Positions 3,893 through 5,354 of a stretch of DNA of 5,684 bases are shown here, piece after piece. The DNA is from an uncultured Candidatus Bathyarchaeia archaeon (GTDB lineage: Archaea > Thermoproteota > Bathyarchaeia > Bathyarchaeales > DTEX01), in NCBI GenBank assembly GCA_964430035.1, contig CAYSEL010000001.1:1-5684 (forward strand), read 5' to 3'. How positions within the stretch are numbered: the stretch's first letter is position 1; the number at the start of each line of letters is the position of its first letter. The notes below the pieces were generated by a model. That model made no database searches, was not told where the DNA came from, and saw nothing but the letters and a program-made list of their open reading frames with translations. The translations under genes and the position numbers were made by a program.

Positions 3893-3910
3893 ATGTGAAG
3901 GTTTTTGTCT
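3893..3910. repeat. Inverted repeat at the right end of the IS110 element (plus strand atgtgaaggtttttgtct)
   Basis: It is the exact reverse complement of 5337-5354 (agacaaaaaccttcacat). All 18 of 18 positions match, and the match stops on both sides. Confidence 0.9.
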
Positions 3911-3920
3911 AAACGCCCTT

Positions 3921-5141
3921 TCAACCAGGAGCCATGACCACGTAACCAGCACCCCTCAAGACCTCAGCCATCTCATCCAAAGGAATACGAGCCAACGCCC
4001 TAACCCTCAAAGGAGTTACCCTCTTCTCAAAGCCTTCCTCCACATACTCCTCCCCTGTTAAAAGCAAATGATGAATTATACAGAGGATTTTCCGAGCCAA
4101 GGCGACTATAGCTTTCTTCTTACCCCTCCTAGCCGCTACCCTGAGATAAAATGTCCGAAGCTTAGAATGCTTGCATCGAGAAGCGGAATGGGCCACCTGA
4201 ATCATCGTACGCCTAAGATTCTTGGAGCCAAGCTTGATCTTCCCGGTCTGGTTTTTGTCCGCTGTCTGATAGACCGATGGACATAGACCCGCCCATGAGG
4301 CAGACTTCTTCCCATTCTCGAACCTCTTAGGATCACCGATCTCAGAAAGGATAGCGGGCGCCAAAGTCTTTCCAACGCCTGGAACCTTACTGATCCGCCT
4401 CACATCATCCTCACGGTCACCGATGAGCATGGCTATTCTTGCATCCATCTTCTCTAGTTCCTCATCCAACCGCTCTATCATCCTCAGGCATCGTTTCAGG
4501 ATAAAGATGTCCTCCTCGTCTAAGCCGTTTCTAACAACCCCCTCCAGCTCAGTCCGTCTTTCCTTCAGAACCTTACTCCTGCTGTTGCCCACGATCTCGT
4601 CCAAGTTTTTACCAGCCATCAAACCTTCAAGCACCTCCATCCCAGCCTTCCCAAAGATGTTGTGAAGCTTTGAACCCAACCTTATGTTGCACCGTTGGAG
4701 AACCTTGTGAACCCTGTTCTTGTAGTCAGTCCTGTTCTGAACCATCTTCGTCCGGAGCCGAGTTAACTCTCTGAGGATCCGTACCTTGCGTTCAGGCACG
4801 TAGCAAGCCTCTATCAAACCGGCTCTGAGCAGGTAGGCAAGCCACTCGCTGTCAGACTGGTCTGTCTTTCTGCCCGCAATCTTACGCGCCTTCTGGGCGT
4901 GAGCCAGCTTTACGTCGAACTCCTCCTCCAACCCAGCGTACAGAGGGATCCAGTAGACGCCAGTGGACTCCATCACAACAGCCTTGCACTCGTTCATGCT
5001 CAACCATTCCTTAAACGCCGCTATGCCTTCGAAGTCCTTCTTGAACTTCATGGTCTCTTTGTCGCCCTCACCCCTCAGCAATGTGGCCATGAAGTCATCT
5101 CGGTGCACATCTACACCGCAAGCCCTACGAAGCAGACCCAT
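3921..5141 (-). CDS. IS110-family DEDD transposase/recombinase (RuvC-like N-terminal domain plus C-terminal Tnp domain)
   Basis: 406-aa ORF. The DEDD signature is GVD(11)VHRD, VVME(58)STG and KTD(94)QSD(97)SEW. The C-terminal domain motif is VPGVGKTLAPAILSEIGDPKRF....SWAGLCPSVYQ(T)ADKNQTGKIKLGSKNLRR. A strong RBS AAGGAGG (complement of 5151-5157) lies 9 nt before the ATG at 5139-5141. Confidence 0.92.
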   Translation of the reverse strand: MGLLRRACGVDVHRDDFMATLLRGEGDKETMKFKKDFEGIAAFKEWLSMNECKAVVMESTGVYWIPLYAGLEEEFDVKLAHAQKARKIAGRKTDQSDSEWLAYLLRAGLIEACYVPERKVRILRELTRLRTKMVQNRTDYKNRVHKVLQRCNIRLGSKLHNIFGKAGMEVLEGLMAGKNLDEIVGNSRSKVLKERRTELEGVVRNGLDEEDIFILKRCLRMIERLDEELEKMDARIAMLIGDREDDVRRISKVPGVGKTLAPAILSEIGDPKRFENGKKSASWAGLCPSVYQTADKNQTGKIKLGSKNLRRTMIQVAHSASRCKHSKLRTFYLRVAARRGKKKAIVALARKILCIIHHLLLTGEEYVEEGFEKRVTPLRVRALARIPLDEMAEVLRGAGYVVMAPG

Positions 5142-5354
5142 ATCTCTACGCCTCCTTACATGTGGCAGCGTTAAGGAGGAGCCTCCACGTCATTCGAGGA
5201 CATATTGCCATTCAGGCTCAACGCCTACTCTTCTAACCGGAAAGGAGGCTCAGACCGCATTTAGCAACGAGGTCGAACCTCAAATACACAACGATCATCA
5301 CACCTCAACGCCTTCGAAGAGGATAGGCAGATACCGAGACAAAAACCTTCACAT
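5142..5354 (-). ncRNA. Non-coding left end of the IS110 element; candidate bridge (guide) RNA locus
   Basis: The region is 213 nt with no credible ORF in the transposase orientation. It lies directly upstream of an IS110-subgroup recombinase, where bridge RNAs are encoded in characterised family members. Structure is visible by eye. An 8-bp stem GAGCCUCC/GGAGGCUC (5244-5251 with 5179-5186) encloses about 57 nt. There is a GAGGU-UCG-ACCUC hairpin at 5269-5281. A 10-nt direct repeat occurs at 5217-5226 and 5304-5313. The enclosed loop carries a 9-nt match to the right-end/target junction. No fold or covariance model was computed. Confidence 0.4.
5337..5354. repeat. Inverted repeat at the left end of the IS110 element (plus strand agacaaaaaccttcacat)
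   Basis: It is the exact reverse complement of 3893-3910. Confidence 0.9.

Follow-up and report, generated by a model that had tools for sequence, protein, structure and literature searches.

An IS110-family element of a Bathyarchaeia archaeon combines long sub-terminal inverted repeats and IS1111-type guide order with an IS110-type layout

Introduction

Bridge-RNA-guided insertion sequences (IS) of the IS110 family have been divided in the literature into two groups: in the IS110 group, the RNA lies upstream of the recombinase gene, there is almost no sub-terminal inverted repeat (STIR or sTIR) and the guides come in one order, whereas the IS1111 group has a downstream RNA, repeats of 7–17 bp and the opposite guide order. 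In this work, we analyzed a stretch of 5,684 nucleotides (nt), hereafter the window, which is the whole of contig CAYSEL010000001.1 (assembly GCA_964430035.1) from an uncultured Candidatus Bathyarchaeia archaeon, and we characterized the element of this family that it contains.

In both groups, STIRs flank the programmable donor; they measure 2–3 bp in the IS110 group, which has a long left end, and 7–17 bp in IS1111, which has a long right end (Durrant et al. 2024, PMC11208160). For IS1111, sTIRs of 11–13 bp, perfect or near-perfect, have also been described, beyond which the element extends by 7 bp at its left end and 3 bp at its right end; the non-coding region is downstream, and the proteins have 330–350 amino acids (aa) (PMC11187229). 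In the guide RNA of IS1111, named seekRNA, the complement of the top strand lies 5' of the match to the bottom strand, and this order is reversed in the IS110 type (PMC11187229). Rare exceptions are also known, such as IS1111-family members with an upstream non-coding region (ISMtsp17) and two sTIR-bearing IS in a deep IS110 branch (PMC11187229).

Our analysis indicates that the element of the window is very probably an intact bridge-RNA-guided IS of the IS110 family, spanning 3890–5384 (1,495 bp), with sTIR arms that would bracket the donor crossover site of the excised circle and an AA core shared with the target on each side (TT on the plus strand). The element and all the features described below lie on the minus strand, here called the element strand, the right end being the one with the lower coordinates.

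Results

The 18-bp inverted repeat is sub-terminal

An original prediction made on this DNA had proposed an IS110-family element carrying a perfect 18-bp inverted repeat exactly at its ends. The repeat itself is as predicted: the arms occupy 3893–3910 (ATGTGAAGGTTTTTGTCT on the plus strand) and 5337–5354, are complementary at 18 of 18 positions, and cannot be extended on either side. On the element strand, the right arm (3893–3910) reads AGACAAAAACCTTCACAT and the left arm (5337–5354), about 27 nt upstream of the RNA basal stem described below, reads ATGTGAAGGTTTTTGTCT. When positions 3700–5684 of the window were shuffled, an inverted repeat of this length appeared in none of 40 shuffles; the maxima for separated arms were 9–12, values of 14 and 16 corresponding to palindromes with adjacent arms. 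The identity of the element was also confirmed, as the gene between the arms encodes a recombinase with the PF01548 and PF02371 domains. The arms co-vary across relatives, and the 18-bp repeat is an element-borne, biologically meaningful pair of sTIRs.

The location of the ends had to be revised. At the right end, we compared the window with the intact orthologue of the interrupted alcohol dehydrogenase (ADH) gene in a genome of the same family (G008). On the element strand, the window reads CCTTCACAT GGC AA TACATAAGGG, and G008 reads CATTTGCTG AA TACATAAAAG, with CTG at the place of GGC. Host sequence resumes at AATACATAA in this alignment, the two bases of the core included; therefore, GGC (3890–3892, GCC on the plus strand) is a 3-nt terminal extension of the element, AA (3888–3889) is shared with the target, and the boundary falls at 3889|3890. 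The intact G008 target contains a single AA, and the G024 and G015 sites described below agree for a sister element: no target-site duplication accompanies the insertion. The AA following the 3-nt extension was found in all 9 archaeal relatives compared.

At the left end, the evidence comes from two sister elements. The first one, in G012, is split over two contig ends, carries the arms ATATGAATGTTTTTGTCTTC on both sides and has nurA on one side and, on the other, the gene upstream of herA. The uninterrupted site is present in G024 and G015, two genomes of the same genus, where it reads ...CAGGT(G/T)GTT|TC(T/C)ATGGAG..., without the arms, the 3-nt extension or a 31-nt extension. Compared with these empty sites, the G012 insert shows, in the orientation of the window plus strand, GCT followed by the arm at one end and the arm followed by CCCGCCTCTAATGGCGTCAGCCAATGTCTGT at the other, with TT on both sides. 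As the stretch beyond the left arm of G012 is missing from the empty sites, 31 nt there belong to the element. The second one is on a 1,542-bp metagenome contig (L016), its protein being 72% identical; its ends are built in the same way, and AA is again present on either side. On the element strand, the left ends of the three elements follow AA|A-NNN-ACAKTGGCT...CGCC(W)TTAGAGGCG..-arm and the right ends arm-RGC|AA. This three-way homology, together with the G012 empty sites, places the left boundary of the window at 5384|5385 and its core, AA, at 5385–5386, leaving a 30-nt left extension (5355–5384) that begins with ATGGACAGTGGC and is homologous to the sister-element ends.

The guides of a predicted bridge RNA read the same junctions

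The 5' non-coding end of the element, between the left arm and the recombinase gene, is predicted to fold into a two-loop RNA whose core spans 5150–5312, with a basal stem formed by 5303–5312 and 5167–5176. The target loop contains a 5' guide (5283–5291), a hairpin (5269–5281) and a 3' guide (5258–5265), while the donor loop contains a closing stem (5244–5251/5179–5186), a hairpin (5213–5227) and a left-donor guide (5203–5211). The minimum free energy of the region 5150–5312 is −59.8 kcal/mol (z −3.16), none of 200 shuffles being as stable, and the architecture is conserved in 8 aligned elements. A search of positions 3700–5684 against Rfam gave no match even at E ≤ 1. In silico, the element appears to encode a structured guide RNA with target and donor loops.

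Three segments in the loops correspond to the target flank or to the junctions. The segment UUGUGUAUU (5283–5291) is complementary to the top strand of AA+TACATAA, the right target flank, over nine pairs including one G-T. The segment GCUAAAUG (5258–5265) is an exact 8-nt copy of the left junction, made of the flank GCT, the core AA and ATG of the element, and AUGGCAAUA (5203–5211) is an exact 9-nt copy of the right junction, AT+GGC followed by AA and TA, so that the 3-nt right extension is read by the left-donor guide. In agreement, GCTAAATG and ATGGCAATA occur twice each in the window, once in an RNA loop and once at a junction. These exact 8- and 9-nt copies in the loops confirm the element boundaries. 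In addition to the core, 2–3 further bases match the recombined junction, in the manner of the handshake guides of IS621 (described in PMC13626964).

The same correspondence was found in other elements. In L016, G012, L177, L180, L181, L182 and L187 (41–72% protein identity where measured), RNA segments at the same positions match the flanks of their own element; in L183, only the donor-guide segment clearly does. Moreover, the AU-NNN-AA segment of the RNA tracks the 3-nt right extension of each element (GGC, AGC, ACA, AGG, AGA), with the exception of L182, whose triplet is AAA and whose guide is mismatched; the G012 RNA is cut off before this segment.

We also noticed that the 5' side of the donor loop (5228–5243, UUAGAAGAG; UUAGAGGAG in L016) bears a same-sense likeness to the stretch before the left arm (TTAGAGG), which does not rise above the cross-element background.

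These results bear on two other explanations of the repeat. According to the original prediction, the arms are the true termini, AT is a duplicated core, and the excised circle carries a palindromic junction of about 34 bp that one guide could read on both half-sites. Indeed, AT is found at both outer edges of the repeat, and the repeat is perfect and element-borne. The presence of AT at both edges is explained by the first dinucleotide of the arm being self-complementary, the core being AA on the element strand (TT on the plus strand). Beyond the arms, GCC (3890–3892) is not host sequence while the preceding TT is, a further 30 bases (5355–5384) belong to the left end, the 31 nt beyond the left arm of G012 are missing from its empty sites, and AUGGCAAUA reads across both the 3-nt extension and the AA core. 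A circle would then read arm-GGC-AA-30 nt-arm, with the arms 35 nt apart instead of forming a perfect palindrome, and the RNA has a separate left-donor guide for AT+GGC+AA, no right-donor guide having been found in it. We consider terminal repeats highly improbable.

The second explanation is that the arms derive from the target, the element having entered the center of a 36-bp palindrome with true ends at 3911/5336. In its favor, IS110-family elements often insert into palindromic repeats, such as repetitive extragenic palindromes (REP) or the inverted repeats of other elements, according to work in the reference list of PMC11208160. The original prediction had already ranked this explanation as the weaker one, and rightly so, as the sites in G024, G015 and G008 lack the arms. 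No such palindrome exists at the G008 ADH site or at the nurA–herA empty sites, and the pattern GTTTTTGTCT-N0-8-AGACAAAAAC, which an IS-free joined palindrome would match, is absent from 47 genomes of the family. In addition, different arm sequences accompany each element lineage in unrelated hosts: the related elements do not lack the repeat but carry co-varying arms of their own. The empty sites, with no IS-free palindrome, effectively exclude a target origin, and we therefore retain sub-terminal arms that belong to the element.

The arms co-vary at fixed distances from the ends

To place the arms in a broader context, we used a set of about 170 loci encoding recombinase homologues. Contigs were also scanned with the pattern MESTGVYW, which is too widely conserved, so that distant homologues saturated the result; L016, L096 and L097 were the closer loci among the matches listed. 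Long repeats sit at two constant places, 200–245 nt upstream of the start codon and, where the end could be fixed, 3 nt from the right end. Their length is 16–25 bp in archaeal relatives and 22–26 bp in Acidobacteriota, against a background of 7–10 bp in other loci.

Across 10 elements from archaea and bacteria, the arm sequences diverge, yet within each element one arm remains the complement of the other, and the spacing of 3 nt on one side and 30–31 nt on the other is kept. Counted from the outer end, the first 18 positions give 180 cells, of which 175 are complementary, and 12 of these positions display 2–4 different bases. The outer 7 nt (ATGNAAA/TTTNCAT) are conserved from archaea to bacteria; positions 8–18 vary and co-vary. 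Four elements have single mismatches, which shows that each arm mutates on its own and that the match is restored afterwards. The arms of this clade exceed all described ones in length, and compensatory changes maintain their complementarity. Among 128 homologue loci, 51 have the motif pair ATGNAAA...TTTNCAT at the expected places, compared with 3 for the wrong strand, and many bacterial relatives therefore have a 9–10-bp version. Two pattern matches, G012:C31 and G000:C52, fall inside ordinary genes and were discarded as chance.

The geometry extends to distant hosts. Once the guide match CAUGGAAGAC is taken into account, two copies in one Acidoferrales genome (L108 and L110) show a right extension of 3 nt, a left one of 31 nt and AG as the core. 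Between its left end and left arm, the window element has a small hairpin (5357–5370, CGCCT-TTAG-AGGCG), which is also kept with varied sequence, as CGCC/GGCG, ACGC/GCGT, AAAAC/GTTTT, AAAGC/GCTTT or GCGCC/GGCGC, in L016, L004, L177, L180–L183, L187 and L108. In L180, L182, L183 and L187 (genus g30, same order), 190–310 nt of G/T-rich repetitive sequence separate the end of the recombinase similarity from the right arm, which is still 3 nt from the element end; this stretch could be a C-terminal extension of the protein or a spacer.

The two Acidoferrales copies are identical, and their sites share about 20 bp, GCCTTCTCATGGA-AG-GAGTT, which is longer than the guide matches require. Their target may be a repeated host sequence.

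A possible role of the arms in presenting the crossover site

Once the element has been excised as a circle, an arm would stand on either side of the donor crossover, in the arrangement arm-GGC-AA-30 nt-arm, predicted to read CCTTCACATGGC-AA-ATGGACAGTGGC on the element strand. We suppose that the arms could provide a fixed, non-programmable part of donor-end recognition, while the RNA would read the target on both sides and the donor only on the right-end side, through the 3-nt extension and the core. The arms might then pair with each other, either at the junction, where they would form a stem or cruciform, or within a single strand, and in this way present the crossover site. This last step is tentative; pairing is favored because complementarity, and not sequence, is conserved in the inner two-thirds of the arms.

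Alternatively, the arms could be plain binding sites of the recombinase, similar to classical terminal inverted repeats and needing no pairing. The conservation of the outer ATGNAAA/TTTNCAT from archaea to bacteria is in line with this idea, as is the ATG...CAT start of the arms in an IS1111-type element resembling IS5075. A protein site would conserve sequence, however, and positions 8–18 vary freely while the arms still match; the asymmetry about the core (3 versus 30 nt) also fits poorly with a two-fold symmetric dimer. Recognition by protein only is rather unlikely on these grounds.

A third possibility is that the arms act in RNA, either as a panhandle affecting stability, processing or translation, in which the left arm, at the 5' end of the guide-RNA/recombinase transcript, would pair with the right arm in the 3' tail, or as the 5' stem of a transcript from the circle junction. 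Such a role would also conserve complementarity rather than sequence, the small hairpin of the left extension co-varies as RNA structures do, and the stems predicted for the junction sequences have energies of −27 to −66 kcal/mol. Against it, no promoter was identified upstream of the left arm, the left arm keeps its 30–31 nt, and the right arm remains 3 nt from the end in L180, L182, L183 and L187. As the distance from arm to end is constant in spite of the 190–310 nt between stop codon and arm, a role in the recombination complex is indicated rather than one in the mRNA, and we regard an RNA-level function as improbable.

Pairing of the arms, at the circle junction or on a transferred single strand, can be extended into a more specific model, which we find doubtful as a whole: the right donor half would not be RNA-guided, and the paired arms would present the crossover in a 35-nt loop with a hairpin, so that a DNA (or RNA) structure would replace one of the four guide-DNA duplexes of the IS621 type, making the element an intermediate between IS110 and IS1111.

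Separately, promoter readings of the arms made by eye (TATA-like TTTTTG, −10-like GAAAAT) were dropped.

The recombinase gene

The recombinase gene (3921–5141) encodes a 406-aa protein with a DEDD RuvC-like domain (PF01548, 3.4e-25) and a Tnp domain (PF02371, 5.1e-23), both well above the curated cut-offs of Pfam. The non-coding parts of the element are very unequal, with 243 nt before the ATG and 31 nt after the stop codon, of which 10 nt precede the right arm. Homologues 70–79% identical exist in metagenomes, and an identical recombinase (P0001) is also encoded on a 15.4-kb contig.

In the motif GL-P----TA (GLCPSVYQ-TA), Thr293 (codon 4263–4265) aligns with the catalytic Ser241 in the Ser-Gly of IS621 (chain 8wt6_A), the conserved family motif being G--P----SG. 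This Thr hardly varies among the 21 closest homologues; the more distant relatives, for the most part bacterial, mostly have Ser-Ala (130 of 148). TA is known as an occasional variant of the IS1111 catalytic motif, which is usually SG or TG (Siddiquee et al. 2024, PMC11187229). The protein shares little identity with IS621, and a confident alignment is obtained only for the C-terminal domain (E 5.7e-13); similarly, the 341-aa protein of an IS5075-like element can be aligned only over residues 221–366, the C-terminal 150 residues, with 31% identity.

Flanks and insertion site

On the right side, the flank (3207–3889) is the 3' two-thirds of a zinc-dependent ADH gene, from about codon 133 onward, cut at the insertion and recognized by the Pfam model ADH_zinc_N. 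The G008 orthologue is a 360-aa open frame with 91% protein identity. The left flank (5387–5684) is the end of an IS66-like transposase open reading frame, whose stop codon, TAA, combines T, the final base of the flank, with the AA core; its Pfam match, to the C-terminus of DDE_Tnp_IS66, is weak (8e-5, 22.6 bits, just below the curated cut-off of 23.1 bits).

On the right flank, the match to the top-strand guide extends over nine bases; on the left flank, the match to the other guide covers GCT+AA. At the insertion point, the sequence of intact ADH is GCTG-AA, which does not fit the guide. The 5' half of the ADH gene was not found in the metagenome-assembled genome (MAG), nor was a second copy of the element, and we found no other copies of the IS66-like flank; a 69%-identical IS66-like stretch in G012 gives only a weak hint of an uninterrupted left flank. 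The element may have inserted where IS66-like and ADH sequences were already joined, or recombination or assembly may have brought together the flanks of two copies. The G+C content is about 0.38–0.45 over the host genes (1–3892) and about 0.49–0.54 over the element and the IS66-like flank (3893–5684), which is consistent with both being imports.

Several observations weigh against an intact, RNA-guided element with pairing arms and have to be set beside the evidence for it. The left junction of the window has no direct empty site, its boundary coming from two sister elements and the 8-nt guide copy. The element is present as one copy only, in an 80%-complete MAG in which the window is an entire 5.7-kb contig, and this copy may be recombinant or chimerically assembled, since the ADH and IS66-like flanks are contiguous in none of the genomes searched. 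In the RNA, a right-donor guide, that is the complement of AA and the start of the left end, was not found, matches within an element equaling those between elements, and pairing of RNA segments with the arms or with the 30-nt extension does not exceed the background. Finally, the strict spacing of the arms fits a role at the DNA level and does not demonstrate that they pair. Taking these points into account, we still consider an intact IS110-family IS with AA cores at both junctions very probable.

Discussion

A first consequence of these results is practical, as the ends of such elements are not to be placed at the inverted repeat. More generally, the clade to which the element belongs, found in archaea and several bacterial phyla, crosses the published split between IS110 and IS1111. 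Its members form a natural series in which to ask what sub-terminal repeats do, a question left open by the papers, and they bear on how the gene of the guide RNA moved between the element ends. For the engineering of bridge recombinases, they point to requirements of the donor end beyond the programmable loop. The view that the repeat is unusual for the family holds in one respect, a long perfect repeat being unusual with an IS110 layout and recalling IS1111, and fails in the other, since the repeat is sub-terminal and not terminal.

Compared with IS1111, the likeness concerns mainly the ends and the guides. ISEc11, IS4321/IS5075, ISPa11 and ISKpn4 (Partridge & Hall 2003) have, like the window element, perfect sTIRs with the ATG...CAT start, and an IS5075-like element of plasmid pc15-k carries a 12-bp sTIR (ATGGTCGCCTCC/GGAGGCGACCAT) and a downstream non-coding region, the two features from which we infer its IS1111-type identity. 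The 3-nt right extension, the order of the guides and Thr-Ala at the position of the catalytic S(t)G, an occasional variant in that group, are also shared with IS1111. On the contrary, the guide RNA of the window lies upstream of the recombinase gene and not downstream, the left extension of the clade is 30–31 nt with an internal hairpin instead of 6–7 bp, and the clade arms reach 18–26 bp and not 11–13 (7–17) bp. The recombinase has 406 aa, not 330–350, and aligns with the IS5075-like protein over its C-terminal part only.

With the IS110 group (IS621, ISCro4, ISEc21; Hiraizumi et al. 2024), the element shares the long left end with a two-loop upstream RNA, a right end that is short, the absence of target duplication, donor and target having the same core dinucleotide, and loops with left and right guides that include the core and 2–3 additional handshake-like bases. 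The length of the recombinase, 406 aa, is likewise of the IS110 type. The element differs by a perfect 18-bp STIR (16–26 bp in relatives) instead of 2–3 bp, and by the right-donor guide, which was not found in the window RNA. The order of the target guides is reversed with respect to IS621 and ISEc21, as UUGUGUAUU lies 5' of GCUAAAUG (PMC11208160, PMC11187229).

The closest parallel is offered by ISMtsp17 and the other exceptions, compared here by description only, which share the combination of sTIR and upstream non-coding region; in our case, however, this combination marks a clade spanning archaea and bacteria with a fixed geometry of 3 and 30–31 nt. In conclusion, the element is a member of the IS110 family sensu lato and a clean member of neither sub-group. 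It brings IS1111-type ends and guide order to an IS110-type layout, which is an unusual mix of known features and not a new mechanism.

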